Below, piece by piece: positions 3,836 to 27,774 of a stretch of 64,000 nt of DNA. The stretch's first letter is position 1, and each line of letters opens with the position of its first letter. Below the pieces are notes generated by a model. It was given only the letters and a program-made list of their open reading frames with translations, searched no databases and was not told where the DNA came from. The position numbers and the translations under genes are program-made. Source of the DNA: Nitrospirota bacterium (GTDB lineage: Bacteria > Nitrospirota > UBA9217). The stretch lies in assembly GCA_035623825.1 (NCBI GenBank), contig DASPSR010000007.1, positions 32,001 to 96,000 on the forward strand, in the 5' to 3' direction.

Positions 3836-4288
3836 ATGGAGCCGGACCGAAGAGATTTTATCAAAAAAGCGCTTACAAGCGTGCTCGTCCTTCTTGGTCT
3901 TGGTTTCATGATACCGGGTCTTAAGATTCTCTCTCCTGCAGGCAGCCGCAATAAAGAGCTCGTTTATTTCCCCCTCGTCCCGGAGGGGGATGTCCCCAGG
4001 TCAGGAGTTAAGAAGAGCGAGCTAGCCTATGTCATCGCCGGCAAGGAGTGGAAGGCAAGGGTCTTTATTGTATCCACTTCGGACAGTTTGAGCGTATTCT
4101 CGGCAACCTGCACGCATCTGGGATGTCTCGTCAATTATAAGAAGGAAAAACGTGAGTTCGTCTGCCCATGCCACGGCGGGCGGTATGACCTGACCGGAAG
4201 GAATATTGCTGGACCTCCACCGGCCCCTCTTACTCGTTTTCCCATCAAGACGCAGGATGGGATGATTGTTGTCGGAATCAAGGTGTGA
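3836..4288 (+). CDS. Rieske [2Fe-2S] subunit of a Rieske/cytochrome b complex
   Basis: Tat-like RRDFIKK plus hydrophobic helix; CTHLGC and CPCHGG boxes. Confidence 0.93.
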   Translation: MEPDRRDFIKKALTSVLVLLGLGFMIPGLKILSPAGSRNKELVYFPLVPEGDVPRSGVKKSELAYVIAGKEWKARVFIVSTSDSLSVFSATCTHLGCLVNYKKEKREFVCPCHGGRYDLTGRNIAGPPPAPLTRFPIKTQDGMIVVGIKV

Positions 4289-4939
4289 TTGCGTATGGGG
4301 TTTCTCAATTATTTGAACACGCGCCTGGGATTTACGAGCAGGCACCGGGGAGTGCTGGACAAGCCGGTGCCGGGATGGATCAATTATTTTTATTGCTTCG
4401 GCGGAATAACGTTCACCCTGTTCATTATACAGGTTCTCACGGGCCTGCTCCTCTCTTTGCACTATATACCAGCCGAGGCAGAGGCTTACCGGAGCATTCA
4501 GCGCCTGCACCTGAATGTTCCACTCGGCCATCTGCTCCGCTCATTACATCACTGGAGCGCGAACCTCATGGTCGTGATGGTAATGCTCCATATGCTCAGA
4601 GTATTCATCACCGGGTCATACAAGAATCCGAGAGAATTAAACTGGGTCGCCGGGGCTGTACTGCTCCTGTTGACATTGGGATTCGGTTTTACGGGCTACC
4701 TTCTGCCTTGGGACCAGAAAGCCTACTGGGCAACGGTGGTGGGGACAAATATGCTCGGCTCGATACCGCTCATAGGGCCCGTCCTCGCTGCATTCGTCCG
4801 AGGGGGCCCCGAGGTGACCGGTCAGACGCTCCTCCGGTTTTATAGCATGCACCTGCTTTGGTTTCCTATCTTGACGGCGTTCTTTCTCTGGGTACATTTC
4901 CACATCCTGCGAAGGCTGGGCATCTCGGGGGGAATGTGA
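4289..4939 (+). CDS. cytochrome b6-type N-terminal subunit
   Basis: YCFGGITF (heme ci Cys position), RSLHHWSA, MLHMLR, GYLLPWDQKAYWA, FYSMH...VHF. Confidence 0.93.
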   Translation: MRMGFLNYLNTRLGFTSRHRGVLDKPVPGWINYFYCFGGITFTLFIIQVLTGLLLSLHYIPAEAEAYRSIQRLHLNVPLGHLLRSLHHWSANLMVVMVMLHMLRVFITGSYKNPRELNWVAGAVLLLLTLGFGFTGYLLPWDQKAYWATVVGTNMLGSIPLIGPVLAAFVRGGPEVTGQTLLRFYSMHLLWFPILTAFFLWVHFHILRRLGISGGM

Positions 4940-5049
4940 GCACATGATATGCATAGTAGGGCGTGAGGGATGCATAGAGATTGAGAAGCGTCTATAGTCT
5001 CAGCTGAGAGTATCGAACAGAGCCTCGTCACCCTGATGTTGGAGTACCG

Positions 5050-5433
5050 ATGAACAAAATCAGAGAAAAAAAGTTCTTCCCTTATTATCTCTTCGAGATC
5101 ACGCTTGTGGCCCTGTTCACGGTGGAGGCAGCTCTGCTGTTGGCTGTCTTGTTCCCGTCCACCGTCGGGCGAGAAATAGATTTTTCGGCGCAATATAGCC
5201 CAAGGCCCGAATGGTATTTCCTCTTTCTGTACCAGCTTACCAAATACTTTCCCGGGCGGTGGACGTTCGTGGGGGCAATTCTGCTGCCCGGGCTCGCCTT
5301 CAGCGTACTGCTCCTTTCGCCATTCCTGGATAGCAGTACGGAGCAATCCCTTGGGAAGCGAAGGGCCGCCGCGGTTATTGGCTTTGGTCTGCTAGCCGCA
5401 GTAGTGGCCTTGACTGTTGCATCCATGATATGA
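5050..5433 (+). CDS. cytochrome b6f subunit IV-like (cyt b C-terminal part)
   Basis: Three TM helices, RPEWYFLFLY (PEWY) motif, LSPFLD. Confidence 0.88.
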   Translation: MNKIREKKFFPYYLFEITLVALFTVEAALLLAVLFPSTVGREIDFSAQYSPRPEWYFLFLYQLTKYFPGRWTFVGAILLPGLAFSVLLLSPFLDSSTEQSLGKRRAAAVIGFGLLAAVVALTVASMI

Positions 5434-5518
5434 ATGACATGAAGGAAAGTTTCGAATTGTAGGAGTTGGCTTCAAGGGCATTGGCCTCTCAGATAGGCAA
5501 GAACCAGCAGGGTGATGT

Positions 5519-6559
5519 GTGAAACATCTCATATCGATTATCATTCCCAATTATAACGGCAGTCGGACGATCGGAAAGTGCCTGGAGTCCATCTTTGCGT
5601 TCAACGACGATGATTGGGAGGTCATAGTCGTTGACGACTGTTCTGAGGACAGCTCAATCGACATTATCGGGAAATATCCCTGCAGGCTTATCCAGTTGGA
5701 GAAACACGCAGGCGCTTCAGCCGCACGGAATGCAGGAGCATTCAGCAGCAAGGGCGATGTTCTGTTTTTTATCGATGCTGATTGCCTCCTGAAAGATGAC
5801 ACCCTGTTAATCATTCGGAATCATTTGTCAGCGCAGCCTGCAGATGTGGTTATCGGCGGCACCTACACACCTGTGCCGCGGGATCCCGGATTTTTCAATC
5901 AATTTCAGTCTGCATTTATCAACTACTTTGAGACGAAAAACAGCAGCAGCCCTGATTACCTCGCCACACATGCCTTGGTTATTAACGCCGAAACCTTTAG
6001 GAAGTTCGGCGGGTTTAAAGAAAACTTCCTGCCTATTCTCGAAGATGTCGAGTTCTGTCACCGTCTGCGAAGGGCAGGTTACAGGCTGATTATGGATCCT
6101 GATCTCCAGGTCCGCCACATCTTTAACCATTCATTCATGAGGTCAATCCAGAATGCCGAAAAAAAAGCACGATATTGGACCATGTATTCCTTGGTGAACA
6201 GGGATTTATTTGCAGATTCGGGAGCGGCGTCTAGAGAACTTAAGCTCAACGGTGTCGCATGGCTGGCGACGGTTGTGCTTGCATTTCTCTCCCTCGTGTC
6301 CGGGCAACGGGAATTTCTGCTGCCCTTGCCCTTGCTGTGGGCATTCGGCGTTTTTGTCAACAGATATTTATTCAAGGCGTTTTATAAAGCAGGCGGCGCT
6401 TTTTTTGCTCTAGTGGCAGGGACGTACTATGTGATAGTATATCCTGCGGCTGTCTGGCTGGGAGCTGCCAGGGGGGCTGTACAATATTCCCTTCAGAATA
6501 AAATGAAGTCTGGCAAAGGCGGTCCCCGCGAGTTCTATAAGGGAACATCGAAGGAATAG
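5519..6559 (+). CDS. glycosyltransferase family 2 with C-terminal membrane helices
   Basis: ISIIIPNYN, VIVVDDCSED, GASAARNAG, FIDAD (DxD), EDVEF; hydrophobic C-terminus. Confidence 0.88.
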   Translation: MKHLISIIIPNYNGSRTIGKCLESIFAFNDDDWEVIVVDDCSEDSSIDIIGKYPCRLIQLEKHAGASAARNAGAFSSKGDVLFFIDADCLLKDDTLLIIRNHLSAQPADVVIGGTYTPVPRDPGFFNQFQSAFINYFETKNSSSPDYLATHALVINAETFRKFGGFKENFLPILEDVEFCHRLRRAGYRLIMDPDLQVRHIFNHSFMRSIQNAEKKARYWTMYSLVNRDLFADSGAASRELKLNGVAWLATVVLAFLSLVSGQREFLLPLPLLWAFGVFVNRYLFKAFYKAGGAFFALVAGTYYVIVYPAAVWLGAARGAVQYSLQNKMKSGKGGPREFYKGTSKE

Positions 6560-6564
6560 ATACA

Positions 6565-7653
6565 ATGTACTCACCATTCAGATACGTACGGGACATATTC
6601 TGGAAGGGAAGGCCGATTCATCTAGCGTTTTTCATCACCAGACGGTGTAATGCCAAATGTCCCTTCTGCTTCTATCTCAGGTCGGGCGAACCCCCCGCTG
6701 ATTCCCTGCCCGAACTGTCGTTGGAGGAGATCGAGAGGACATCTTCCTCCCTAGGCAGTCTCCTGTGGCTGGCGTTTTCCGGCGGTGAGATTTTTCTTAG
6801 AGACGATCTCATTGAGATCGCCCGAATCTTCTACCGGAATAACAAACCGGCGATTATGCTGTTCCCGACGAACGGGCTTATGCCTGAGGTGATCCTTGAC
6901 AGGATAGAGACGATCGTTCGCTCATGTCCAAAGAGCGTTGTTGCCCTCAAGCTATCCGTTGATGGAGTAGGCGAGGCGCATGACACGATCCGCAATATGC
7001 CGGGAAGCTTTGACAAGACCCTGCAGACATATATGGCGGTTTCCGATCTTGTCGATCGGTACCCGAATTTCGAACTCGGAATAAATACGGTCTTCTGTTC
7101 AGAAAATCAAGAATCTATGGATGAGGTAATCGATTTCGTGCGGGAGCTCAAAAACATCAAAACGCACACAATTTCTCTCGTGAGGGGCAACCTTACTGAC
7201 AAGCGGTATGGCGTCGTAGATTCCAATAAATACCTTGATGCCGTGCGGAAGCTTGAAGAGAACCTAAAAGGAGGGAGGTCACCTGTATATCGTTTCAGGG
7301 GTGCACGCATCAAGGCAGCACAGGATATTCTTCAGCGCCGTCTCATCCACCAGACGATGCGCGAGAACAAAAGGATCATACCCTGTTTTGCAGGCAGGCT
7401 TAATCTGGTTCTCACGGAATGTGGCGATGTTTTCCCCTGCGAACTGCTTACGGAATCTTTCGGAAATGTGCGGGATTTCGGATATGACATAGGGAAAGTT
7501 GTCCGTTCAGAGAGAGCTTGCAGGGTGAATGGTTCGATAAGGGACAACACGTGCTACTGCACCCACGAATGTTATTTCATGACCAATATTTTGTTCAACC
7601 TTCAAATGTATCCCACTTTAATGAATGAATACTTGCAGCTCAGGACCAAATGA
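6565..7653 (+). CDS. radical SAM protein with SPASM/twitch-like C-terminus
   Basis: CNAKCPFC (CX3CX2C), SGGE, CFAG...GDVFPC...CYCTHEC. Confidence 0.9.
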   Translation: MYSPFRYVRDIFWKGRPIHLAFFITRRCNAKCPFCFYLRSGEPPADSLPELSLEEIERTSSSLGSLLWLAFSGGEIFLRDDLIEIARIFYRNNKPAIMLFPTNGLMPEVILDRIETIVRSCPKSVVALKLSVDGVGEAHDTIRNMPGSFDKTLQTYMAVSDLVDRYPNFELGINTVFCSENQESMDEVIDFVRELKNIKTHTISLVRGNLTDKRYGVVDSNKYLDAVRKLEENLKGGRSPVYRFRGARIKAAQDILQRRLIHQTMRENKRIIPCFAGRLNLVLTECGDVFPCELLTESFGNVRDFGYDIGKVVRSERACRVNGSIRDNTCYCTHECYFMTNILFNLQMYPTLMNEYLQLRTK

Positions 7654-7747: not shown

Positions 7748-9094
7748 TTATTCTATTCCAAGTTCTTTCAGCCTTTTCCACAGAGTGACTCTGCTGATAC
7801 CGAGGTGCTTCGCCGTAAGGGTCCGGTTTCCTCTATTCAGGGTCAGCGCCGAGCGCAGCTTTTCCCTATCCAAAATCTGTTCACTTTCCTCAGCCTTTTT
7901 CTCCTGGAAAACATATTCAGGGAGGTCAGTGACTTCGATAGTGTCTCCTTTACAGGTGATAGTGCTATGTTCCAAAGCGTTGATCAGCTGCCGCACGTTA
8001 CCCGGCCACGAGAAGTTTTCGATGATCTCCATTGCTTCTGGGCTTATGCGCCGGATGTTCTTGCTGTTGATATGAGATATCTTTTTCAGGTAGTGGAAGG
8101 CGATGACCGGGATATCTTCAGTCCGATCCCGCAGCGGCGGAACCTTGATAAGAATGGAGTTAATACGGTAGAGGAGATCTTCCCGAAAGATGTCCGATTT
8201 GACGAGGGCGTTCAGGTCCTTATTCGTAGCTGAAATCAGCCGGATGTTGACGGGGATCGGATGGTGATCTCCCACGCGTTCCACGACCTTCTCTTCAAGG
8301 ACCCTCAGCAGTTTCACCTGCATGACTTTCGGCATGTCGCCGATCTCATCGAGGAAGATACTGCCGTCATGGGCGGCCTCGAACCTGCCCGTCCGGTCGC
8401 TCATGGCTCCGGTAAAGGAGCCTTTTTTGTGGCCGAAGAGCTCGCTTTCGAGGAGGTAGTCGTTCAGAGATCCGCAGTTCATAGCTACGAACGGGCCCTC
8501 CTTGCGTCTGCTTAGGGAGTGGATGGCCTGGGCCACGAGGTTCTTGCCGGTGCCGCTTTCGCCGCAGATTAGTACAGGTGCTTCGCTCCCGGCAGCGTTC
8601 CGGATCTGCTCGAACAGTTTCTGCATAGGGGCGCTCTTCCCGAGCAGACCCATGAACCAGTATTCCTGCCGCAGTTCCTGTCTCAGTTCTTCGAGCTCCA
8701 TCTCCTTCATGTACAGCGATGTGATATCCGTCATGGACTCCACTGCACCGATCATTTCACCATTCTCATCCCGCAGGACAGTGGCATTTTTCAACAGGTA
8801 GACGGCCCTTCCGTCACCGGAGCGTATCCGGCATTTCTTGTTCTCGATCACGCCCATCTTGAATATGCCGCAGTCTTTTCTCTTCCCCTCGTTGGTTAAG
8901 AAGACACAGGTGTCACTGTCGAGGATCGTGCACTGTTGCCCAATGATCTCTTCTTTTCGATATCCGGTAATATTTTCCGCAGCCCGGTTGAAGAACAGAA
9001 TATTCCCGTCCTTATCGACGATCATGAGCCCGTCTCGCATGGTTTCGAAAACGTTGATAAGAAAGTGTGGCTCTTTGAATAATTTTTCGATCAT
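7748..9094 (-). CDS. PAS-domain sigma54-dependent transcriptional activator
   Basis: N-terminal PAS, GESGTGK, ESELFGHKKGSFTGA, FLDEIGDM, WPGNVR, C-terminal Fis HTH. Confidence 0.93.
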   Translation of the reverse strand: MIEKLFKEPHFLINVFETMRDGLMIVDKDGNILFFNRAAENITGYRKEEIIGQQCTILDSDTCVFLTNEGKRKDCGIFKMGVIENKKCRIRSGDGRAVYLLKNATVLRDENGEMIGAVESMTDITSLYMKEMELEELRQELRQEYWFMGLLGKSAPMQKLFEQIRNAAGSEAPVLICGESGTGKNLVAQAIHSLSRRKEGPFVAMNCGSLNDYLLESELFGHKKGSFTGAMSDRTGRFEAAHDGSIFLDEIGDMPKVMQVKLLRVLEEKVVERVGDHHPIPVNIRLISATNKDLNALVKSDIFREDLLYRINSILIKVPPLRDRTEDIPVIAFHYLKKISHINSKNIRRISPEAMEIIENFSWPGNVRQLINALEHSTITCKGDTIEVTDLPEYVFQEKKAEESEQILDREKLRSALTLNRGNRTLTAKHLGISRVTLWKRLKELGIE

Positions 9095-9121
9095 TGATCC
9101 CCCTAAGGTGTAAAAAAATGA

Positions 9122-9183
9122 AACATGTTAATTAGCATTTTGTTAATTGTTAATTTAACATGTTTAACGTTAATTAGCATTTT
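9122..9183. repeat. AT-rich direct and inverted repeats, probable activator-binding sites
   Basis: GTTAATTAGCATTTT at 9127-9141 and 9169-9183; AACATGTT at 9122 and 9157; near-palindrome TGTTAATTTAACA 9148-9160. Confidence 0.6.
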
Positions 9184-9260
9184 AACACTTATTTGTCAAC
9201 ATAAAATTATAATGATTTTGTAAGGTATTGAAATATTGTAAAATTGGTTGTATTATAAGA

Positions 9261-9277
9261 TAGGCATGACATTTGCT
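9261..9277 (+). promoter_or_regulatory. sigma54 (-24/-12) promoter for the USP operon
   Basis: TAGGCATGACATTTGCT: GG(9263-64)-N10-GC(9275-76); divergent from a sigma54 activator gene. Confidence 0.75.
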
Positions 9278-9330
9278 ATTGTATAAAGTAACTTGGAAAT
9301 ATACAATCCGCTGGTTAGGAGGAATGCAGC

Positions 9331-9915
9331 ATGAAAAAGATCCTGATAGCAGTAGATGATACAAAGGGATCAAAGAACGTACTTTCGGTCTTTCATAATT
9401 TTGTCCAGAAGCCGGTTGAGGTGGTTCTTCTTCATGTAGAAAAGTTACAGGGCAGGTCCCTGATGATTGACATGCTTGGCGACGCGGAAATGTCGACCCT
9501 GAAGGAAATGCTGAGTGGTACCGATTATAAAGTCGCTTTGGATAAGAGGGCGGAAAAGATTCTGGCATTTTACTCGAAAGAGCTAGCACAGGACGGTCTG
9601 GGAACGCTCAAGACCGTGAGGAGGGAAGGCGTTCCTTCTGAAGAAATCCTAAAGGTTGCTGGAGAAGAAGGCGCCGACATGATCATTCTTGGCCAGAGCG
9701 GAAAAAGAGGGTTCGACAGGTTTATCACCGGAAAAGTCGCGCGATATGTTGAGAACAACGCGAAGGTGCCTGTTCTGGTTGCAAAAAGACCGCTCATGTG
9801 TGAAGAACCATACACCAAGAGGGACGCCTGGGCCGCGGTTTCCGTTACATCGGCGATCATGCTTGCGTTGTTCCTTCTGGGCATCATACTTCAGAGGGGA
9901 TCGCTTATCCATTAA
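9331..9915 (+). CDS. universal stress protein with C-terminal TM extension
   Basis: MKKILIAVD...DMIILG...G.VA..V...A.VPVLV; hydrophobic tail. Confidence 0.88.
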   Translation: MKKILIAVDDTKGSKNVLSVFHNFVQKPVEVVLLHVEKLQGRSLMIDMLGDAEMSTLKEMLSGTDYKVALDKRAEKILAFYSKELAQDGLGTLKTVRREGVPSEEILKVAGEEGADMIILGQSGKRGFDRFITGKVARYVENNAKVPVLVAKRPLMCEEPYTKRDAWAAVSVTSAIMLALFLLGIILQRGSLIH

Positions 9916-9997
9916 GTTTAATAACGTGTTCTATTGTGTTTCAATGACAGATAACTAAAAAATCAGATAACTAAAAGCAATGTAAGAGGAGGTTCGC

Positions 9998-10513
9998 ATG
10001 AAAAAGGTATTGATCGCAGTAGATGAAACAGAAGGTTCAAAATCAGTATTGTCGGTATTTCGCAATATGGTGCGTCCACCCGAAAGTGTGGTGCTAGTCC
10101 ATGTGCAGCAGCTCGAAGGCAAGTCCCTCATGATCGACATGCTAGGTGACGCGGAGCTGAACACGCTTCGGGAAGCTCTGAGAGGCACGGAGTTCAAAGA
10201 GGCGCTTGACCGGAAGTCGGAAAGGATCCTGAACTACTACCGTAAGGAAATTGAGAACGGCGGTTTGGTCAGCGTGAAGACGGTAATCAGGGACGGAATC
10301 GCCTCTGAAGAGATACTGAAGGTGGCCCAGGAAGAGGGTGTGGACCTCATTGTCACTGGCTATAATGGGAAGTCCGTCATGCAAAGGCTTTTCACCGGCT
10401 CACTCAGTAAAGAGATGGAGAAGAATGCACCGGTACCGGTCCTTGTGGCGAAGGAACCCACAGAAAAAGAGAAGTATGCTTGGACAGCCGCTGCCGCAAT
10501 GCATTCGAAGTGA
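9998..10513 (+). CDS. universal stress protein
   Basis: MKKVLIAVD...DLIVTG...GSLS...APVPVLV. Confidence 0.9.
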   Translation: MKKVLIAVDETEGSKSVLSVFRNMVRPPESVVLVHVQQLEGKSLMIDMLGDAELNTLREALRGTEFKEALDRKSERILNYYRKEIENGGLVSVKTVIRDGIASEEILKVAQEEGVDLIVTGYNGKSVMQRLFTGSLSKEMEKNAPVPVLVAKEPTEKEKYAWTAAAAMHSK

Positions 10514-10560
10514 GGTCGTTAAGCAGTCGGCTAGTCGTTCACATGTTTCTTAACACAATT

Positions 10561-11217: not shown

Positions 11218-11221
11218 GCTT

Positions 11222-21957: not shown

Positions 21958-22170
21958 AATACTATTTCCCCCTTAAAAATAGTTTTGAAAGATGTTGCTC
22001 ATGTGCAAGGCAGTTTTCTTATTGTAAGATGATCACGCCCCCCTTCGCCGTTGAAATCGCTCGAAAAACCCGTCAATTATTTTAAGATCGTGGATGCGGG
22101 TAAATTTATGATGCGCAGGTTATCCGGAGATATATATAATATATAAACGGAGTATCAAAAACAAGCACTA

Positions 22171-22210
22171 TTTTGCATGTAATGTTGCGTAATTGCATGA
22201 TTTTGCAACA
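22171..22210. promoter_or_regulatory. candidate operator upstream of the yeeE-tusA operon
   Basis: Inverted repeat TGTTGC(22183-88)...GCAACA(22205-10); TTGC repeated four times at roughly helical spacing. Confidence 0.4.
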
Positions 22211-22264
22211 AAAAACGGATTGAACGTGCAGCGAAGCTGATGGACAGCTTATTCAAGGATTTTT

Positions 22265-23962
22265 TTAGCGGGTAAAGGAGACATCTTTTCGATAGATTCT
22301 GACGCCGACACTGTATCGAAATATTTCTTCTCTCACATTGAACACTTTGGTTAATCGGTAGCCTTCGAGCCTCTGTGCAACAGGTTTCGGCAACGGGTCA
22401 TCTGAAGCGTCCAAAATTACAATGACGGGAACGCTTAAAAATGCATCTGGTTTGACCATATAGTATGCCGGGTTCCGGTATTCCCAGGTAAATCGGAGAG
22501 GAGACCGTTCAATCTCCTCGCGGGGTGGGATGCCTTCAGGCCTGTATTGATATCGTATCTGCTGGTCCGTGAAAAGGTCGAGAAGGGGAACAGCTACAGC
22601 AGGATTTACAACGGGCTCCTTCGAAGCCAGCGTTATGACTTCGACCTCCCCGGCTTCCATCCTATTGAGATACTCCCCGGCATGTTTAAGGTTAACGATG
22701 CTCATGCGTTCTGCAAGCGGCAGGTAGGCGAAGATTCCGATAACAAGCGATGTCGTGACTGTGCTGAAGACAATGAATCGTTTCAACGCATCCTGTTTGA
22801 TGACCTGCAGCCCGTACCCTGCCATAAGAGTAAGCATGGGAAAGACGGGTACTATGTATCGGATCCTCTTGATGTTAAAGAGGATGATGAGTAGGACGAG
22901 CCAGCAGGTAATTACATAATTTATGTCCCGTTTGCGGAATGCAACCACGAGGGAAGCAAGTGCTGATGCCGCAATGAAGGGGTGTGTCTGGAATAGAAAG
23001 GTCGAAACGAAGCTTTCTCCCCACCGGGCAAGGCCGCGTTGTTGAAACCCGTGCAGAAGTCCGACCTGTTCTGAAACCACGTCGAACTTTAAAATCAGCA
23101 TCACTCCCGAAACTGCCGCTGCCGTGAGCAGGATAACAACCCCTCTTAGAAGCGGGCGGCGGTCTTTCGACCATGCATGACCTACGATGTAAACGATCAA
23201 CACGACTCCGAGCACGGAGAGCATGAGCCAGGCAGAATACTTGGTGAGAACGGTGAGAACAATCGCCGCTATGGCACATGCAACTCTCGCGGACCGACCT
23301 TTGTTGAGCGCTTCGAGAAATGTGAACACCGACAGGGCGAGGAAAAACATGGTTGGTACATCCACCAGCATAAGCGGGACCTGGGTCAGCAGATAGGGAA
23401 TGCCGAGGAGCAGCATCCCGGCAGAAAATCCTGTTTCCCTGTCCCAAAGTGTTTTCCCGATGAGAGATGTCAGAACAACGGTCAGAGAGAACAGTACGGT
23501 CGTAAACATCTGGATAAAGATTCTGCTCTCACCGAAAAGTTTGAAGATTATTCCGTAGAGAAATGGTACGAGCGGCATATCCGTCCAGGCAAAGATCGTT
23601 CTGCCCCATTCTTTCAGAAAATAGCCGATGCCGTACACTTCGAGGTGCTTTGCCTGGGTAAAATATCGCGACGCGTCAACGATGATCTCTGATTCTTTCC
23701 AAAAAAGCGCGCTGGAAGCAAATGAGAGCGCCACAAGAAGCGGGATCTGATATCTATCGGAGACGGCGCCTCGCGACAGGAAAAAAGAAACGATGAGACC
23801 CGCGACGATACCGATGTAAATCCGTGAAATATCGACGCTGGCAAATACCCACGACCAGCTGAACAGGGCATTGTCGTCTGCATCGCGGAGGAGAATAAGG
23901 GCGACAAAGATCAAAAGACACACAACGGCGATGAGGATAAAACTGGCAGGTTTGTCTTGCAC
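22265..23962 (-). CDS. ArnT/PMT-like (GT-C fold) membrane glycosyltransferase
   Basis: About 12 TM, IIVDASRY, DMPLVPF, LTKYS, KRIRYIVPVFP; start set at GTG 23962. Confidence 0.8.
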   Translation of the reverse strand: MQDKPASFILIAVVCLLIFVALILLRDADDNALFSWSWVFASVDISRIYIGIVAGLIVSFFLSRGAVSDRYQIPLLVALSFASSALFWKESEIIVDASRYFTQAKHLEVYGIGYFLKEWGRTIFAWTDMPLVPFLYGIIFKLFGESRIFIQMFTTVLFSLTVVLTSLIGKTLWDRETGFSAGMLLLGIPYLLTQVPLMLVDVPTMFFLALSVFTFLEALNKGRSARVACAIAAIVLTVLTKYSAWLMLSVLGVVLIVYIVGHAWSKDRRPLLRGVVILLTAAAVSGVMLILKFDVVSEQVGLLHGFQQRGLARWGESFVSTFLFQTHPFIAASALASLVVAFRKRDINYVITCWLVLLIILFNIKRIRYIVPVFPMLTLMAGYGLQVIKQDALKRFIVFSTVTTSLVIGIFAYLPLAERMSIVNLKHAGEYLNRMEAGEVEVITLASKEPVVNPAVAVPLLDLFTDQQIRYQYRPEGIPPREEIERSPLRFTWEYRNPAYYMVKPDAFLSVPVIVILDASDDPLPKPVAQRLEGYRLTKVFNVREEIFRYSVGVRIYRKDVSFTR

Positions 23963-24352
23963 GGAGGCATTATAGCATTGGCTCGTATGAAGTTCTACGA
24001 TTTTCGACCCGAGCGTCAGTTGTTGCCGGCCGAAAAGGATGACGCCGAAAAGCACTGCTATTTTGGCTGACCGCTGCACGAGGTCATTTAGGTGCTCATG
24101 CTTATTCGAGAGATGGCCGCCCTTTGTCCCAGACGAACAGCATAAACGTGCATATTCTCCTCAATTCGACCAAAATAGTCGTCGGAGCATGCCTTGTGAC
24201 ATGTCCTTTGCGTTTTTTTTGAAGATCGCTTGCGGACAGCCCAAACGACGTGTCGGACAGATGAAAGTAATCTCGTAGATGCTGCTAATGGGCAGCTCGT
24301 TACTTGAACTCAATGACGCCGAAAATAGTGGGCTAGGAAACAAGATGAGGCC

Positions 24353-24379
24353 CCGGGAGGCACCGGAATGCCTCCCGGA
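24353..24379 (-). terminator. hairpin after the rhodanese gene
   Basis: CCGGGAGGCA...TGCCTCCCGG inverted repeat; no clear U tract. Confidence 0.4.
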
Positions 24380-24386
24380 AGAAGAT

Positions 24387-24887
24387 TCATTTTACGATTG
24401 GATAGTTCTTGCTGGCTGCGCCTTGGATGGCTTCCTGCATCTTCTGCCCTCCGCGATAGCCCTTGATCCATGCAGCGTAGCCGAAAGCCATGGTGTAGGC
24501 ATCGTAGCCGAGCGCGCGCAAGCCCACGATTGGGAGATTCTGTGTTTGGCCGGTTACGCAGACGACAATAACTTTCTTGTTCTTAGGGAGCTTCTTGAGA
24601 TTTTCGAGCTTAAAGATGTCCTGGACGGTTATCTGCATAGAACCGGGGATGTGCCCTTCACTGTACTCGGCCGGATTGGGCCGCACATCGACGATCACGA
24701 AGTCGGTCTTCTTCTCGTTGATCATGGCCATTACCTCGTCGGCCGTGATTTGCCAGAACTTGGCTTCTGGACCTTTGGATAGCACCGCATTCAGCTTTGC
24801 TGCCATATCATCTGCGGCAGACGCAGCAGGGATTGTGACAGCCACGGCAAGAATCAATACCCACATTACAAACAAGATCTTTTTCAT
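24387..24887 (-). CDS. exported rhodanese-like sulfurtransferase
   Basis: Signal peptide (…PAASA), IVDVRP, GHIPGS, active-site loop VCVTGQT, GYAAW. Confidence 0.88.
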   Translation of the reverse strand: MKKILFVMWVLILAVAVTIPAASAADDMAAKLNAVLSKGPEAKFWQITADEVMAMINEKKTDFVIVDVRPNPAEYSEGHIPGSMQITVQDIFKLENLKKLPKNKKVIVVCVTGQTQNLPIVGLRALGYDAYTMAFGYAAWIKGYRGGQKMQEAIQGAASKNYPIVK

Positions 24888-24961
24888 TGCCCCCTCCTTA
24901 AGTGTATGCATAATGTTCACCACTCGCTTCCTTCCGAGAAACGGCTTTTTTATTACGAACG

Positions 24962-25264
24962 TCACAGTATGATTACTCGGTCCGCCTCATGCTGCATGAC
25001 GGCGTTGTTGTACTGGCTCCCACAGACGATTTCCGATGGAAGGCCCTCCGATGTAACCCCCAGGTGCTTTGCGCTATGATCGCAGAAACTCACGGTTACC
25101 CCTGTTGTCCTGCACAATTCGGCGAATGCGGGTGTTCCAACGAGCTTTGTGCCAGCATCCATGTTAAAGAGCATGACGGTATGTCCCTTTGCAAGGGCCA
25201 CTTTGGTAATCCCCTGCACTGCGTCAAGATTTTTATTGGTGTTCACAAGTATGCCGAGCTTCAT
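24962..25264 (-). CDS. DsrE-family sulfur relay protein
   Basis: GHTVMLFNMDAG, VSFCDHSA, GSQYNNA...ADRVIIL. Confidence 0.82.
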   Translation of the reverse strand: MKLGILVNTNKNLDAVQGITKVALAKGHTVMLFNMDAGTKLVGTPAFAELCRTTGVTVSFCDHSAKHLGVTSEGLPSEIVCGSQYNNAVMQHEADRVIIL

Positions 25265-25348
25265 GCGTGCTCCCTCCCCTCGAATCGAATATCGCGCGTC
25301 CGGATGTGCCTGTTTCCGGAAAGCCTGAACCAACCTGCAGCTTCTCGT

Positions 25349-25516
25349 CTACCAGGATATAACTTTATCGCTGGAGAAAATGAGATCGACGATCTGGTCG
25401 TAGTTCTTGTTCTCTTTGAGATTCACGACTGTGACGTCATTTCCTTTTTTATGTACTTCCATGATCTTTTTTGCCGTGGCATCGAAATCCTGCTTTTGAA
25501 TGTATAAAATTTTCAT
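25349..25516 (-). CDS. small DsrH-like protein (55 aa; not in ORF track)
   Basis: GAGGTG RBS; MKILYIQKQDFDATAKKIMEVHKKGNDVTVVNLKENKNYDQIVDLIFSSDKVISW; clear paralog at 27604-27774. Confidence 0.8.
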   Translation of the reverse strand: MKILYIQKQDFDATAKKIMEVHKKGNDVTVVNLKENKNYDQIVDLIFSSDKVISW

Positions 25517-25541
25517 TAGTCATCACCTCGTTCTGGTTACT

Positions 25542-25814
25542 TTAGTACGGAAGGATATGGTCATATTCCAGAAGTTTTTGCGCCAGTTCTTCAGTTGAAA
25601 TGTAATCCATTCCCGAGTTCTCTTTCGTGTTCGTGGCAAGCTTCATTCCCAGGTCCTTGATGGTCTCGAGATTCAGGTCGTTGTCATCGTTCTTTTCAAC
25701 CTTTCGGTCCAACACATATACATCGATGGTATCATCCATGAGCGTGATCCCCACAGACATCCTCAGGGCCTCACCTTGCCGGTCCCTGACGAGTACAGCA
25801 ATTTTTTTCCCCAC
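25542..25814 (-). CDS. DsrF-like small protein (no Cys)
   Basis: AAGGAGG + GTG; KKIAVLVRDRQGEALR...EELAQKLLEYD; paralog at 27305. Confidence 0.78.
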   Translation of the reverse strand: MGKKIAVLVRDRQGEALRMSVGITLMDDTIDVYVLDRKVEKNDDNDLNLETIKDLGMKLATNTKENSGMDYISTEELAQKLLEYDHILPY

Positions 25815-26263
25815 GGTATCCTCCTTAATTGAGATTCGCAGCCTTGTCATCGTGTTTTTCCGAATAAATTTCAAGAATTAGAATCTGCGGACAAGAATGC
25901 GTGATTGGAATTGAACAACACCTCCTCCCATCCTCAACATCAGGCGGTGATGCAAAATGTTGAGAAGACGTTCAGTACCGGCAGATATGTTACATGCTCC
26001 AGCATGCATGATCGCGCTTGCGCAGGCACTTAGTTGCGGGATATAGAATTTTATCGGTTTTTAAATTATATTCTTATTGTATGAGGAAGATAGGGACCTA
26101 ATAAACACATTAATAACATAATACAAAAAAAAATAAAATGCAAGCAGAGGCCGTTGGCCCTGCCATAAACTCTCATTATGGAGCAATGAAAGTTTTTAAT
26201 AGGCATGCCGCGGGATGATGTGCGGTCTGACCTTTCATTTTATTTAAGTTCGAAAAACGCATA

Positions 26264-26292
26264 TTGACACGAGGGATGGTTTTTGTTAAGTT
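26264..26292 (+). promoter_or_regulatory. sigma70-type promoter for the tusA-dsrE operon
   Basis: TTGACA-17nt-TAAGTT with extended TG. Confidence 0.6.
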
Positions 26293-26490
26293 ACTATACT
26301 CAGGAACTCATAAATGCATTCTGGATAATTGCCGATCTGCTGATACGGTAGTGTGGTGTGCGCAGAGTGGGCCACTTGTCCAGCATGCTTCTGAATAAAA
26401 CATCGGGGATATAGTAGTGATCGTTAAGTTGAAAGAATCGGGCAAATTAAACAGCCCGAATTTGATACTCAATGGTGAGGAGGAATAATC

Positions 26491-26739
26491 ATGGCACTGA
26501 AAGATGAAGCACCGAAGCAAACGCTGGATACTCTTGGTAGGGTATGCCCCTATCCGCTGTTGTTGACCAAAAAAGCGCTGGAAAAGCTCGGAAGCGGCCA
26601 GATGCTCAAGGTTCTTTGCGATGCCCCTGCTTCTGCCGAGGACAGCATCCCGCGCTACTGCGAGAAAAACAAATTTGCCTTTGAAGCTGTGAAATTGGAA
26701 GACAAAGGCATGTGGGAGCTCTATATCAAGAAGTCATAA
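26491..26739 (+). CDS. TusA family sulfur carrier protein
   Basis: LDTLGRVCPYP, LKVLCDAPAS. Confidence 0.9.
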   Translation: MALKDEAPKQTLDTLGRVCPYPLLLTKKALEKLGSGQMLKVLCDAPASAEDSIPRYCEKNKFAFEAVKLEDKGMWELYIKKS

Positions 26740-26826
26740 GCGCGTGAGCAGTACCCTCATAGCTCTCAATGGTTTTATCCGACCGTGATCTGTTATTTTC
26801 CGGCATCCAAACTTGCCGCACCACAA

Positions 26827-26858
26827 GCCGGGCAGTGTTAATCTGCCCGGCACTCTTT
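26827..26858 (+). terminator. terminator-like hairpin after the second tusA
   Basis: GCCGGGCAG-loop-CTGCCCGGC then ACTCTTT. Confidence 0.5.
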
Positions 26859-26971
26859 ATGCCTAAGACAGAATAAAACAGTTGTTAGGAAATCAATCTT
26901 GGCAGGTTAATGGCAATTATCGGTCCGATTCCATTGTTTTGCTATATTCTACGAGAGAGGAGGTGAAAATC

Positions 26972-27277
26972 ATGGCAAATGGAATGTTGGGTATGATGGT
27001 TACCAAGTATGAGAACCTGGAGCATATCACTGGAGTAGTTAAAGCGGCATCGGATGCAGGGCATCCGGTAGTGATATTCTTGACTGACGAAGGAGTGCGT
27101 TTCACGAGGGATCCAAAGTTTCTGGAATTGCTCAAGGTTCCCGGCGTTGAGCTGTCCTGTTGTGACCACAGTTGCGAGCTGATCGGGATTCATGAAAAGA
27201 CGGCTGGCATCTCGTACGGCAGCCAGTACAACAATGCCGGAATGCTGCATGACAGCACCCGGGTACTAGTGTTCTAG
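26972..27277 (+). CDS. DsrE-family sulfur relay protein
   Basis: GHPVVIFLTDEGV, LSCCDHSC, GSQYNNA. Confidence 0.82.
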   Translation: MANGMLGMMVTKYENLEHITGVVKAASDAGHPVVIFLTDEGVRFTRDPKFLELLKVPGVELSCCDHSCELIGIHEKTAGISYGSQYNNAGMLHDSTRVLVF

Positions 27278-27304
27278 CAAATATGAGAAGAAGGGGAGTT
27301 TTCT

Positions 27305-27583
27305 ATGGGAGATACGAAAAAAATAGCAGTGATCGTGAGGGACAGGCCGAGCGAGGCGCTCCGTGTTTCAGGAGGGCTTACCCTGGCCGACGATACAATA
27401 GATGTCTTTGTGCTGGACCGGAAACTTGACAAGAGCAATCCCGAAATCGCGACGCCACTTGAACTGGTCAACGAACTTGACCTGAAGATGTATTCCAATA
27501 ATCCCGAAAACGGGTACACGACAATCACACTTGAGGAGATGGCGAAGAAGCTCCTCGAATATGATTTAGTAGTGCCATACTAA
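27305..27583 (+). CDS. DsrF-like small protein (no Cys)
   Basis: KKIAVIVRDRPSEALR...EEMAKKLLEYD. Confidence 0.8.
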   Translation: MGDTKKIAVIVRDRPSEALRVSGGLTLADDTIDVFVLDRKLDKSNPEIATPLELVNELDLKMYSNNPENGYTTITLEEMAKKLLEYDLVVPY

Positions 27584-27603
27584 CATGATAGGGGGTTTCA
27601 ACC

Positions 27604-27774
27604 GTGAGGATCCTGCATATCTTAAAAACAACGCCTGATGCAAGCACAAAAAAGATCATGCAAGTGCACTCGGCAGGGCATCAGGTAAAGACCGTTGAGC
27701 TGTATAAGGGAGGCGTTTCCTACGACGGGCTTGTGGCGGAAGTATTCGCGCACGACAAAGTGTTCTGCTGGTAA
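27604..27774 (+). CDS. small DsrH-like protein (56 aa; not in ORF track)
   Basis: AGGGG + GTG; MRILHILKTTPDASTKKIMQVHSAGHQVKTVELYKGGVSYDGLVAEVFAHDKVFCW. Confidence 0.8.
   Translation: MRILHILKTTPDASTKKIMQVHSAGHQVKTVELYKGGVSYDGLVAEVFAHDKVFCW

Follow-up and report, generated by a model that had tools for sequence, protein, structure and literature searches.

Gene clusters with a core of the YeeE-TusA-DsrE type (the YTD cluster) are described in published papers, and in the naming used in two papers from 2026 the F-like and H-like genes of the locus studied here correspond to DsrF and DsrH of type II (PMC12998232; PMC13293266). YeeE/YeeD is presented as an assimilatory thiosulfate-uptake system (PMC13047784), and the formation of thiosugars by radical SAM (rSAM) enzymes is reported in a further study (PMC12691670). 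The YeeE-TusA-DsrEFH carrier genes are already described. What is new here is that one set of them (set A, viz. DsrE/F/H_A, a long YedE and TusA_A) is interleaved with genes for a GT-C glycosyltransferase, a UDP-galactopyranose-mutase (UGM)-like flavoprotein, a B12-binding rSAM enzyme, a GT2 plus SPASM rSAM pair and a GGYG-repeat protein. This partnership of relay genes with sugar-modifying and rSAM genes is present in about 60 other genomes from two phyla, and no description of it was found in the literature searched.

In the present work, we have analysed a window of 64,000 nucleotides (the whole stretch of Nitrospirota DNA examined). All of the components that a first-pass annotation had named are located at 3800-27774 and are real open reading frames with family matches far beyond chance; two YeeE/YedE genes, two TusA genes, two triads of DsrE, F-like and H-like genes and an exported rhodanese have all been mapped, and the YTD cluster which that annotation had mentioned is documented in the literature and agrees with the core found here (PMC12998232; PMC13293266). 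The annotation had further taken the whole 24 kb as one system, larger than the YTD core by an electron-transfer part and a biosynthetic branch. The biosynthetic branch (GT-C, FAD enzyme, B12-rSAM and GT2-rSAM) is borne out: synteny is conserved, the phyletic profile is close to all-or-none, and the genes recur in a second phylum, where their order is shuffled. The electron-transfer part (Rieske/cytochrome b6/subunit IV) is not, its adjacency being confined to the window's own family. Because this adjacency is family-limited and a sigma-54 site is found only at the USP-YeeE operon, we regard the 24 kb as at least three modules placed side by side (viz. module A, module B and the sigma-54 USP1-3/YeeE operon) rather than one system. 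Marks of a mobile island (tRNA, integrase or terminal repeats) were not found at 3800-27774. Module A, lying between module B and the Rieske/cytochrome b6/subunit IV genes, is a conserved composite unit in which relay and glycan genes are interleaved. Its cross-phylum core consists of 11 genes (viz. GT-C, long YedE, TusA, TM-anchored GGYG-repeat protein, UGM-like flavoprotein, B12 rSAM, membrane GT2, SPASM rSAM, DsrE, DsrF and DsrH type II), to which some lineages add an exported rhodanese, USP4 or a 4-TM protein. It is probable that module A forms one functional unit.

The relay genes of module A all lie on the reverse strand. TusA_A (20238-20489; PF01206, 4.7e-19) has a CPxP cysteine that is invariant in 49/49 sequences. 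The long YedE/YeeE-family transporter (YedE_L, Sulf_transp, 472 aa; 20539-21957; PF04143, 5.1e-40) contains an insertion of ~100 aa and three cysteines that are invariant in 54/54, and it matches YeeE in the PDB (6leo, 7.2e-20). The single-domain rhodanese (24387-24965; PF00581, 1e-15) has a signal-peptide-like N-terminus, with a likely start at 24887, a Sec-type signal and an active-site Cys136 that is invariant in 27/27; it is present at 27/45 loci and missing in 18/45. DsrE_A of type II (24962-25333, likely start 25264) scores 23.3 bits against PF02635, above the cut-off of 22.7, and its Cys61 is invariant in 40/40. The 55 aa DsrH_A-like protein (25349-25516) is predicted to bind DsrE_A and DsrF_A, and the DsrF_A-like protein (25542-25874) gave an AF2 model (pLDDT 87) for which Foldseek returned YchN (1jx7), 3mc3 and then, at rank 3, DsrF (2hy5_B); the fold also matches TusBCD (2d1p_E). 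The three proteins are predicted to form a complex with a score of 0.94, versus 0.52 for the best control, passing a mark also reached by 116/157 solved complexes and 2/215 mismatched pairs; the partner pLDDT is 95 and the runs agree in at least 98% of contacts. This pass may partly reflect likeness, since a similar complex (2HY5) has already been solved. The GGYG protein (19920-20204), which was absent from the first-pass annotation, has a TM anchor at its N-terminus and then six (A/S)GGYG repeats. Its slot holds a TM-anchored ORF in 50/51 loci, with at least two G(G/A)Y motifs in 44/51, and in two loci (L044 and L048) the same anchor and Gly/Tyr stretch are fused to a tandem rhodanese on the periplasmic side.

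The glycan genes of module A are found on both strands. On the forward strand, a GT2 glycosyltransferase (5519-6559; PF00535, 4.2e-29) with two C-terminal TM helices (243-261 and 294-312, by hydropathy) is always found paired with an rSAM enzyme (6565-7653; PF04055) that has a Cys-rich SPASM/twitch-like C-terminus, scores far below cut-off in every NCBIfam match and shares the phyletic profile of YedE_L and B12-rSAM. On the reverse strand, the HpnJ/AprD4-like B12-rSAM (16255-17775; PF02310 and PF04055) has HpnJ as its best NCBIfam match (197.6 bits, below the cut-off of 577.6) and AprD4 as its best PDB match (6fd2, 3.7e-25). Its gene overlaps translationally with that of the amine-oxidase-family, UGM-like FAD flavoprotein (17747-19159; NF005548, 454 bits, above the cut-off of 389), whose best PDB match is UGM (4dsg, 2.9e-25, residues 7-451). 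The GT-C glycosyltransferase (PMT_2; 22265-24079; PF13231) gave an AF2 model (pLDDT 89.3) with an ArnT-like fold (Foldseek top match ArnT 5f15, E 3.9e-8, TMq 0.56), and the first ~40 residues of its ORF lack conservation. USP4 (19359-19820, reverse strand), assigned by its universal stress protein family match, lies between the GGYG and FAD genes in Nitrospirota. A small membrane protein with four TM helices by hydropathy (15712-16122, reverse strand), also absent from the first-pass annotation, gave no family match and occurs 3' of B12-rSAM in close relatives only (5/37 and 10/19 loci). In the NCBIfam comparison no cassette enzyme attains the cut-off of a characterised family, and the sugar chemistry is hence assigned at the level of enzyme class.

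The neighbourhood and phylogenetic-profile analyses that the first-pass annotation had proposed show that the GT-C, FAD and rSAM genes co-localise and co-occur with YedE_L, TusA and DsrEFH in both Nitrospirota and Thermodesulfobacteriota. Around 59 YedE_L orthologues in Nitrospirota, counted over loci with enough flank, TusA is found at 56/57 loci, USP4 at 46/49, FAD at 42/45, B12-rSAM at 38/42, GT-C at 37/47 (it is missing in the other 10) and DsrE at 37/44, all co-directional. With B12-rSAM as the reciprocal anchor (63 metagenome loci, two of which come from the window's DNA or from a near copy of it), FAD is found at 29/32, YedE_L at 12/14 and GT-C at 9/9. Among 41 relatives scored for YedE_L, B12-rSAM, rSAM and GT-C, all four are present in 10, three in 3 and none in 28, and of 301 genomes of the phylum 45 hold both YedE_L and B12-rSAM, 15 B12-rSAM only, 3 YedE_L only and 238 neither. 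These linkage and profile counts overstate the number of independent events, since most of the genomes behind them are relatives of one another. The genome of the window itself contains dsrA/B, dsrC and aprA, and dsrA is found in 55/60 genomes with B12-rSAM and in 45/48 with YedE_L.

Five genomes of the Thermodesulfobacteriota hold a B12-rSAM orthologue (61-64%), which is clustered with YeeE/YedE in 5/5. Four of these loci, in three different gene orders, also contain TusA, DsrEFH, GT2-rSAM and GT-C; the fifth (L176) is cut by a contig end. The order is TusA-DsrE-F-H-GT2-rSAM in L170 and L169 and GT2-rSAM-x-DsrE-F-H in L171 and L172, the last being a single same-strand string in which the GGYG protein is present. 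The copies of module A in this second phylum could stem from a single transfer.

Module B, on the forward strand, comprises TusA_B (26491-26739; PF01206, 2.6e-20), DsrE_B (26882-27277, likely start 26975), which is orthologous to the ordinary YTD DsrE of the family, and the DsrF_B-like (27305-27583) and DsrH_B-like (27604-27774) proteins. It represents the family's ordinary YTD locus (TusA_B-DsrE/F/H_B), its own YeeE having been lost here, and in the window's family it adjoins rho and the genes for Rieske, cytochrome b6 and subunit IV. The sulfur genes had been called duplicated and two sets are indeed present, but a recent duplication is not indicated: the orders differ (F-H-E-Rhd at 24962-25874, reverse, versus TusA-E-F-H, with the triad at 26882-27774, forward) and the triads share 39% (E), 53% (F) and 47% (H) identity, so that they are distinct subtypes.

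The third module is the USP1-3/YeeE operon, which is under sigma-54 control and has activators and a kinase to itself. EBP1, a sigma-54 PAS enhancer-binding protein (7748-9094, reverse; PF00158, 6.5e-68), is divergent from the operon and conserved beside USP1, and a promoter-like motif (9262-9277, forward) lies 53 nt upstream of USP1. The three tandem genes USP1 (9331-9915), USP2 (9998-10513) and USP3 (10657-11217), all forward (PF00582, 1e-18 to 1e-21), and USP4 are paralogous as annotated, cross-matching each other at 36-60% identity. USP1-3 are followed on the same strand by a short YeeE/TsuA-like thiosulfate-transporter homologue (Sulf_transp; 11147-12319; PF04143, 1.7e-66; NF052577 TsuA 217 bits, below the cut-off of 400), whose true start is probably downstream of 11147, and, by family match, a second sigma-54 PAS activator, EBP2 (12472-13944), which resembles EBP1 (947 nt at 73%), and a dCache sensor histidine kinase (13963-15609). 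The regulators had been thought dedicated to the whole island; the sigma-54 site is conserved only before this operon, being found upstream of USP1 in 11/11 loci, YedE_L in 0/55, GT-C in 0/36, the FAD gene in 1/45 and DsrE_A in 0/39. A shared promoter or regulator for module A was looked for and none was found. Contigs from an RNA library match the window identically over USP1, USP2, the GGYG/TusA_A junction and YedE_L; this evidence is weak, and such a library can hold DNA.

From the observed gene content, folds, conserved cysteines, linkage and co-occurrence of module A, and from the predicted DsrEFH_A complex, we infer its substrates, its acceptor and the reason for coupling relay and glycan genes, and tentatively propose a role in envelope handling of sulfur. 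The rhodanese would mobilise sulfane sulfur or thiosulfate in the periplasm, possibly on the tethered GGYG protein; YedE_L together with TusA_A would import the mobilised sulfur, and the persulfide would pass to Cys61 of DsrE_A in the DsrEFH_A complex and on to the genome-encoded DsrC/DsrAB. Alongside this, a sugar may be tailored by the flavoprotein and both rSAM enzymes; GT2 would load it on polyprenyl phosphate, and on the periplasmic side the ArnT-fold GT-C would move it to an acceptor in the envelope, either LPS core/lipid A or the GGYG protein. The envelope would thereby become competent for zero-valent or anionic sulfur species.

It is also conceivable, if somewhat unlikely, that module A is a biosynthetic rather than a dissimilatory relay, with TusA-TusBCD-like delivery of persulfide to an rSAM enzyme making a sulfur-containing sugar that is loaded by GT2 and placed by GT-C on an envelope acceptor, module B remaining the dissimilatory YTD set. 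The reports on assimilatory YeeE/YeeD (PMC13047784) and on thiosugar-making rSAM enzymes (PMC12691670) are in keeping with this, as are the TusBCD match of the DsrF_A fold, the ordinary YTD set already present as module B, and the fact that DsrE/F/H and GT2-rSAM share one operon-like string in L170, L169, L171 and L172. YedE_L is hardly ever without the cassette (3/48) and the cassette more often without YedE_L (15/60), an asymmetry suggesting that the relay serves the cassette. However, no likeness to a known sulfur-inserting rSAM enzyme was found in the NCBIfam and PDB comparisons, stand-alone cassettes show a pathway without need of a dedicated relay, and module A occurs almost only in dsrA-bearing genomes (the 45/48 above). 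The exported rhodanese, like the rhodanese fusions, suggests that sulfane is handled in the periplasm, as is typical of energy metabolism. That module A handles selenium through a YedE/YedF-type system is highly improbable: the top NCBIfam rows are the selenium-associated YedE/FdhT (YedE_L, 122 bits) and YedF (TusA_A, 46.8 bits), and TGA-interrupted YeeE-like and DsrC-like genes occur elsewhere in the genome, but these scores are far below the cut-offs of 350 and 79, and the partners are DsrEFH type II and rhodanese with conserved cysteines typical of persulfide relays.

The functional coupling itself may be questioned, in that an ordinary LPS/envelope-modification cassette could have been interleaved in an ancestor and since then passed on as a block, by descent and in one or two transfers. 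The cassette (GT-C-FAD-B12-rSAM, with or without rSAM-GT2) occurs alone in 7 genomes (G105, G142, G209, G220, G199, G015 and G124), where the 10 kb fetched on either side contain no sulfur gene, and is tandemly duplicated in three of them; hence it can work without an adjacent relay; a GT9 heptosyltransferase pair (LPS-core type) lies upstream in 19/59 YedE_L loci, most of the evidence stems from a single class within one phylum, the search for a common promoter or regulator found none, and the functionally unrelated rho, an equally conserved neighbour of the Rieske genes in the window's family, shows that unrelated genes can stay syntenic. We nevertheless consider the absence of coupling unlikely, since the core persists while flanking genes turn over completely (any non-core ORF family is found in at most 6/59 YedE_L loci), membership is kept while internal gene order varies across lineages and phyla, the parts co-occur even where 210-250 kb separate them or they are on other contigs (G012, G004 and G007), and within one genus the profile is patchy and all-or-none (G000 and G001 hold all genes, G002 and G003 none). 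The original reading of the whole 24 kb, including Rieske/cytochrome b6, four USPs and regulators, as one undescribed sulfur/electron-transfer system is already weakened and very unlikely. The genes in question, all forward, encode a Rieske 2Fe-2S subunit (3800-4288; PF00355, 4.1e-11; one TM anchor by sequence and hydropathy; likely start 3836, an in-frame ATG just 5' of the twin-arginine motif RRDFIKK), a cytochrome b6-type subunit (4289-4939; PF00033, 5.7e-55; NCBIfam ExtP 252.7 bits, below the cut-off of 290) and a PetD-like subunit IV with 3 TM helices by hydropathy (5050-5433; PF00032, 1.6e-07). In 14/19 family relatives DsrE type II has a cytochrome b6 orthologue on the same contig at a distance of up to 30 kb (within 3.2 kb in 9), the family genomes without DsrE type II (G003, G013 and G023) also lack this orthologue, GT2-rSAM is directly 3' of subunit IV in G000, G001, G019 and L108, and L058 forms one same-strand string, Rieske-cytb6-subIV-TusA_B-DsrFHE_A-Rhd-GT-C-YedE_L-...-B12-rSAM. 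However, the cytochrome b6 and DsrE type II genes are unlinked in 5/5 genomes of other families holding both (G035, G036, G039, G028 and G031), no Rieske gene stands beside module A in the second-phylum loci or beyond GT2 in more distant Nitrospirota loci, the sigma-54 sites are confined to the USP operon, and in the ancestral layout ~300 bp separate subunit IV and TusA_B. A place in module A is thus not supported for the Rieske/cytochrome b6 genes, which are a neighbour at the family level only; they probably encode a general respiratory complex, since the cytochrome b6 gene is the sole cytochrome b match found in the window's genome (G000, 89.65% complete).

Our analyses show that Thermodesulfovibrionia and some Thermodesulfobacteriota carry the YTD cluster in two or more forms, and that one of these forms is associated with a glycan/radical-SAM cassette and with a membrane protein containing Gly/Tyr repeats. 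As described in passages of two papers, the YTD cluster consists of a yedE-like gene, tusA and a dsrE-like gene, plus two or three conserved hypothetical genes, and it has been proposed as a marker of sulfur disproportionation (PMC12998232, PMC9751629). According to passages of work from 2026, the DsrE-like protein of the cluster has been shown to be, together with two hypothetical proteins, a sulfur transferase with one active cysteine ("DsrEFH type II"), which is reported in 985 genomes and includes one subtype that is mostly from Nitrospirota (PMC13293266; PMC13047784); the functional cysteine of the Electronema DsrE-like protein is given as Cys67 in a passage of the former paper (PMC13293266). 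Whether the cluster marks sulfur disproportionation or sulfur oxidation by "sulfate reducers" is debated in passages of this literature (PMC12998232, PMC13293266).

The first-pass annotation of the window had mentioned such a cluster and had read positions 3836..27774 as a single 24-kb sulfur, Rieske, radical-SAM and glycosyltransferase system. The cluster that it mentioned exists in print, and its composition agrees with the published passages (PMC12998232, PMC9751629, PMC13293266). All of the listed elements are present between 3800 and 27774 in our ORF listing and Pfam/NCBIfam scans, together with two conserved small genes that had been missed, viz. that of the GGYG protein (19920-20204; 94 aa, in which a TM helix at the N-terminus is accompanied by six (A/S)GGYG repeats) and that of a 4-TM protein of 136 aa (hyp136; 15712-16122). 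The genes dsrAB and aprAB, which it had suggested looking for elsewhere in the genome (3.24 Mb, 67 contigs, 89.65% complete), are represented by aprA, by dsrA (569.6 bits, above the cut-off) and by a dsrB-like gene; several dsrC-like genes are present as well. The region itself is divided differently by our results. Module A comprises DsrE/F/H_A, a long YedE of 472 aa (YedE_L), TusA_A, a GT-C, an FAD protein, a B12 radical-SAM protein (B12-rSAM), a GT2, a second radical-SAM protein (rSAM) and the GGYG protein, and is probably one functional unit; set B, TusA_B-DsrE/F/H_B, is the ordinary YTD locus of the family.

Both sets resemble the published cluster in a YeeE-family transporter, a TusA bearing the CPxP cysteine, a DsrE-like protein in which a single active cysteine is conserved and two small conserved proteins in DsrF/DsrH-like roles, and in a genome context with dsrAB, dsrC and aprA. 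Set A differs from it in that its five genes are non-contiguous, being interleaved with those of the GT-C, the GGYG protein, a USP, the UGM-like flavoprotein, the two radical-SAM proteins and the GT2, and in that its YedE is the 472-aa form with an insertion. The YedE of set A matches PF04143 (5.1e-40), and both TusA copies match PF01206. Invariant in our alignments are the CPxP cysteine of TusA (49/49 sequences), Cys61 of DsrE (40/40, DsrE_B included), three cysteines of YedE (54/54) and the rhodanese cysteine (27/27). Cys61 of DsrE_A is the likely counterpart of Electronema Cys67, as judged by motif position only. An AlphaFold model of F_A (pLDDT 87) matches DsrE/F-fold proteins in a fold search, with DsrF (2hy5_B) at rank 3. 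In a three-chain prediction, the 55-aa H_A packs against DsrE_A as well as F_A with a score of 0.94, compared with 0.52 for the best control (partner pLDDT 95, run agreement at least 98%); 116 of 157 solved complexes attained such a mark, as did 2 of 215 mismatched pairs. Since DsrEFH has already been solved, this prediction indicates likeness and is not proof. As modelled, the set would also resemble the TusA-TusBCD-TusE relay of E. coli tRNA thiolation (2D1P), in which TusA passes sulfur to a DsrEFH-fold heterotrimer and on to a downstream persulfide acceptor; in the fold search with the F_A model, 2d1p_E is the match at rank 10. However, no TusE/MnmA partner lies nearby, and the neighbours here are membrane transport and glycan enzymes.

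Module A is conserved in other genomes. A scan for YedE_L, with one genome per species, identified 59 loci with orthologues of 62-92% identity. Among the loci with enough flank, the genes retained around it are TusA_A (56/57), USP4 (46/49), FAD (42/45), B12-rSAM (38/42), GT-C (37/47), DsrE_A (37/44) and H (37/44), with the core genes co-directional; the rhodanese (27/45) and an upstream F gene (20/44) are less constant, F lying on the far side, after GT2, in four loci (L028, L030, L031 and L054), and rSAM and GT2 are found within 10 kb downstream in 13/36 and 8/33 loci. These and the following counts come mostly from mutually related MAGs and carry tblastn labels resting on the window's own proteins. 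Clustering of the 1194 ORFs of the 59 loci yielded the same families (YedE_L 57, GT-C 45, TusA 42, USP4 42, FAD 42, B12-rSAM 37), together with a GT9 heptosyltransferase pair that is present in 19/59 loci by Pfam and absent from the window; all other ORF families are limited to at most 6/59 loci, as background synteny. In these 19 loci the GT9 pair stands directly upstream of DsrE_A, with one gene fused to a HAD phosphatase domain, as at L028:3696-6261, L035:5538-6545, L063:3784-6614 and L074:3512-6199. The reciprocal anchor, B12-rSAM in 63 loci of metagenome contigs (two of which, L090 and L139, are the window's DNA or a near-identical copy and are counted in), has upstream of it FAD in 29/32, USP4 in 17/22, TusA_A in 14/17, YedE_L in 12/14 and GT-C in 9/9 loci.

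The same genes also occur together at the level of whole genomes. Within a set of 41 relatives, orthologues of YedE_L, B12-rSAM, rSAM and GT-C are found in 12, 13, 12 and 12 genomes; all four are present in 10, three of the four in 3 fragmented genomes, and none in 28, including two of the window's own genus (G002 and G003). In three relatives (G012, G004 and G007) rSAM or B12-rSAM lies on a different contig or at a distance of 210-250 kb and still co-occurs with the rest. Of 301 evenly sampled genomes of the phylum, 60 have a B12-rSAM orthologue and 48 have YedE_L; a count by hand gives 45 genomes with both, 15 with B12-rSAM only, 3 with YedE_L only and 238 without either. The two genes are no more than 5 kb apart in 35 of the 45. 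The 15 genomes with B12-rSAM alone are of several kinds. Four (G196, G201, G239 and G283) have a short YeeE directly before FAD-B12-rSAM, preceded in three of them by DsrE-H-GT-C; one (G237) is cut at a contig end and three are on short contigs. The remaining seven (G105, G142, G209, G220, G199, G015 and G124) have a stand-alone GT-C-FAD-B12-rSAM cassette, with or without rSAM-GT2 and tandemly duplicated in three of them, and no sulfur gene is present within the fetched stretches; each of the five such genomes that were searched has one DsrE type II elsewhere. Module A is also found, with a YedE_L 71-92% identical to that of the window, in four loci titled Betaproteobacteria, Bacteroidota or Desulfobulbaceae (L021, L055, L057 and L046), and the genome of L046 holds in addition a 66% B12-rSAM orthologue; these are likely mis-binned or mislabelled Nitrospirota contigs.

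The association extends to a second phylum. A search of 301 Thermodesulfobacteriota genomes (the phylum of a Geobacterales-titled record; E <= 1e-80) returned B12-rSAM matches in 9, of which 5 are orthologues of 61-64% identity, and all 5 cluster with the relay. In L172 and L171 the order, all on one strand, is GT-C-YedE_L-TusA-GGYG-like TM protein-(multihaem cytochrome, 101-aa ORF)-FAD-B12-rSAM-GT2-rSAM-(143-aa ORF)-DsrE-F-H, after which unrelated housekeeping genes follow. L170 and L169 have two convergent operons, [TusA-DsrE-F-H-GT2-rSAM] and [FAD-GT-C-YeeE-B12-rSAM], and L176 is cut by its contig end. Among the lower-identity matches, context is readable only for G484 and G545, which are paralogues without sulfur genes; the contig of G514 is only 1.9 kb long. 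The multihaem protein of L172 (3589-4527) is a 312-aa c-type cytochrome with weak c7/MtrC-like matches, and it occupies the slot of the Nitrospirota USP4.

The first-pass annotation had proposed that the functional unit is larger than the YTD core and includes both a biosynthetic branch and electron transfer. The biosynthetic part is supported, as the GT-C, FAD, radical-SAM and GT2 genes are linked to the relay or co-occur with it, whereas the inclusion of the Rieske/cytochrome b6 genes is not supported. The Rieske, cytochrome b6 and subunit IV genes (3800-5433; PF00355, PF00033 and PF00032) are adjacent; no gene for a c-type cytochrome (f/c1) subunit is present among the ORFs of 3285-5518, and the next gene is a GT2. 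Orthologues of cytochrome b6 (at least 71% identity) are found in 19 relatives of the family, in 14 of which they lie on the same contig as DsrE type II within 30 kb and in 9 within 3.2 kb. Among genomes from the phylum's other families, 5/5 of those with both genes show no linkage between them, and at the Thermodesulfobacteriota loci Rieske/cytochrome b6 is not beside the unit. We read this complex, which contains the only cytochrome b gene found in the window genome, as a general quinol-oxidising complex kept next to the YTD genes by family-level synteny, as rho is. It has some likeness to the Rieske/cytochrome b gene pair of the Geobacter selenite/tellurite "Ext" operon, its cytochrome b6 scoring best against ExtP and subunit IV weakly against ExtQ, and its operon having no c-type cytochrome gene; however, the scores are below the cut-offs (ExtP NF040969, 252.7 vs. 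290 bits; ExtQ NF040970, 21.2 vs. 150 bits) and the Ext porin and cytochrome genes are absent here.

Dedicated regulators had also been listed among the parts of the island. They sit beside a sigma-54 promoter-like site found only before the operon of USP1-3 and the short YeeE (9331-12319), which forms a third module with the sigma-54 activators EBP1 and EBP2 and a kinase. EBP1 faces the USP1-USP2-USP3-YeeE operon (7748-12319), and a sigma-54 promoter-like site (-24/-12) precedes USP1, with an equivalent in 11/11 orthologous loci, always beside a divergent activator. No such site precedes the module A genes in the orthologous loci scanned, and a single regulon for the whole island was rejected, the sites being confined to the USP operon. 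A scan of 15500-28200 for sigma-70 promoters and terminators gave counts at chance level (15 vs. 13.2 and 15 vs. 13.8) and is uninformative on operon structure. The contigs of one peat metatranscriptome run include pieces with full identity to USP1 and USP2, to the junction of GGYG and TusA_A and to YedE_L, which is presence in an RNA library and not regulated expression; none aligned to FAD, B12-rSAM, GT-C or DsrEFH, which is evidence neither way. In Desulfolithobacter, USPs belong to the proteins that were detected during thiosulfate disproportionation only, according to a passage of PMC9751629.

The two sets are distinct in sequence and in distribution. Sets A and B share 39% (E), 53% (F) and 47% (H) identity; in a search of 40 relatives, DsrE_B-type genes were found in 18 same-family genomes, and the DsrE_A type in a partly different set, being on other contigs in four (G004, G009, G011 and G015). 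A comparison of 40 kb around the matches in ten genomes indicates that the usual family layout (G002, G017 and G005) is rho(-) | Rieske-cytb6-subIV - TusA_B-YeeE-DsrE_B-F_B-H_B, followed further on by an OM barrel and a CFI-box protein gene; G014 has this layout with an insert of 6.7 kb. The window and G001, of the same genus, have about 22 kb between subunit IV and TusA_B and lack the YeeE after TusA_B, although it is retained in G002, G017, G005 and G014. The same inserted block as in the window is found in G012, G019 and G007. A mobile genomic island was rejected, as neither a tRNA, an integrase/transposase among the ORFs nor terminal repeats were found; apart from the paralogous pairs of EBP, DsrE and DsrH genes and the repeated codons of GGYG, the region has no long repeats. 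In the gap between TusA_B and DsrE_B, where relatives have YeeE, there is a strong hairpin (26827-26851; 9 pairs, 8 of them G-C) with a T-rich tail, followed by a weak sigma-54-like site at 26900. Two relatives have a second, paralogous GT-C and YedE_L pair with 42-54% identity to that of the window (G012:C10:212936-216157 and G019:C6:62859-66122).

The cassette enzymes can be assigned only at the level of chemistry class. The FAD protein exceeds the cut-off of a single NCBIfam model, the unnamed "hypothetical protein" equivalog NF005548 (454 vs. 389 bits); among solved structures it is most similar, along its full length, to UDP-galactopyranose mutases (2.9e-25), and it scores below the cut-off of the UGM model TIGR00031 (54.8 vs. 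303.75 bits). The best solved relative of B12-rSAM is the sugar diol-dehydratase AprD4 (PDB 6fd2, 3.7e-25), and its closest NCBIfam model is HpnJ, with scores below the NCBIfam cut-offs for HpnJ (197.6 vs. 577.6 bits) and AprD4 (102.7 vs. 500 bits). The second radical-SAM protein has a Cys-rich C-terminus and weak family matches only. GT2 has two C-terminal TM helices and generic GT-A/GT2-domain similarity, and its assignment as ArnC/GtrB/DPM1 was rejected (ArnC-type NF007986, 23.4 vs. 529 bits); an assignment of hyp136 as a GtrA/ArnE/F-type flippase was likewise rejected, its only match being DUF5518 (18.7 bits, cut-off 27). The GT-C matches PF13231 (43 bits, cut-off 26.1). Because it has no match in the PDB by sequence, a fold search was used, in which the top Foldseek matches of its model (pLDDT 89.3, pTM 0.91) are all GT-C enzymes, viz. 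ArnT, then STT3, PglB and ALG enzymes.

Arn-type periplasmic glycosylation is a three-component system of the ArnC GT2, the ArnE/F flippase and the ArnT GT-C. The cassette resembles it in a GT-C of ArnT-like fold (5F15), a GT2 with membrane helices, accompanying sugar-tailoring enzymes and a small 4-TM protein that is present in close relatives. It differs in that tailoring involves a UGM-like flavoprotein and two radical-SAM proteins instead of ArnA/B/D, and in that GT2 is below the ArnC cut-off and the 4-TM protein matches no flippase family. Given these enzymes and the GT9 genes that neighbour them in a third of the loci, the cassette has the look of a pathway for lipid-linked sugar tailoring and transfer that acts at the periplasmic face. 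The GGYG slot holds a TM-anchored small ORF in 50/51 loci, with at least two G(G/A)Y motifs in 44/51, and in the ESM Atlas the GGYG protein has no match beyond its own Nitrospirota cluster, which is unnamed and has 66 members. In two Nitrospirota loci (L044:11809-12921 and L048:11847-12953), the anchor and a short Gly/Tyr stretch are fused to a tandem rhodanese of about 370 aa, which ties the GGYG anchor to periplasmic sulfur handling. In purple sulfur bacteria, zero-valent sulfur is associated with the sulfur globule proteins (Sgp), which are small, exported, repetitive and rich in Gly and Tyr. The GGYG protein is also small, Gly/Tyr-rich and repetitive, as compared with the general description of Sgp, but it retains an N-terminal TM anchor that appears uncleaved.

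Taken as one unit, module A would capture sulfur in the periplasm, import and relay it, and couple this to modification of an envelope glycan. The main rival explanation is a biosynthetic relay that supplies the radical-SAM sugar pathway with sulfur: DsrEFH type II of the A subtype, long YedE and TusA would serve biosynthesis and not energy metabolism, a sulfur-containing sugar would be exported on polyprenyl phosphate, and the ArnT-like GT-C would attach it to LPS or to the GGYG protein. We regard this specific proposal as unlikely; if true, the anaerobic Nitrospirota and Thermodesulfobacteriota of the sulfur cycle would have envelope glycoconjugates of a new, sulfur-bearing class. As YedE_L rarely occurs without the cassette and the cassette sometimes occurs without YedE_L, we favour a relay that serves the cassette, an asymmetry that does not decide between the envelope-handling and the biosynthetic-relay mechanisms. 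Co-occurrence with dsrA was considered as a discriminator between energy metabolism and biosynthesis and was set aside as non-discriminating, because nearly all families that bear module A have dsrA anyway. Our results provide a concrete, testable link between sulfur trafficking and either envelope glycobiology or the biosynthesis of sulfur-containing sugars.

In the openly accessible main texts that our literature search covered, which do not include Umezawa et al. 2020, no paper was found that combines these elements. The terms "radical SAM" and "glycosyltransferase" have 0 occurrences in four YTD papers, supplements excepted (PMC13293266, PMC12998232, PMC9751629, PMC13490349), and the additional genes of set A (GT-C, GGYG, USP, flavoprotein, the radical-SAM proteins and GT2) are absent from the relevant passages of YTD papers (PMC13293266, PMC13047784, PMC12998232). 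Ca. Sulfobium and Ca. Nitrobium have been scored as having an "incomplete YTD cluster" in a passage of PMC8906906. The locus L074, from a record titled Ca. Sulfobium sp., carries the interleaved form; genomes scored in this manner may in fact carry that form, and the two subtypes should be kept apart in marker-gene surveys.

Some other features of the window and its genome were observed. Downstream of DsrEFH_B (28008-30499), a gene for an MXAN_2562-family outer-membrane beta-barrel is paired with a CFI-box-CTERM protein gene, a pair that is retained at this place in five relatives (G001, G002, G014, G017 and G007), and an ORF of 1318 aa (30905-34861) lies just past the 24-kb region. On another contig of the window genome, a YeeE-like gene (G000:C14:12998-14103) and a DsrC-like gene (G000:C14:19758-20071) each contain one in-frame TGA and may encode selenoproteins.
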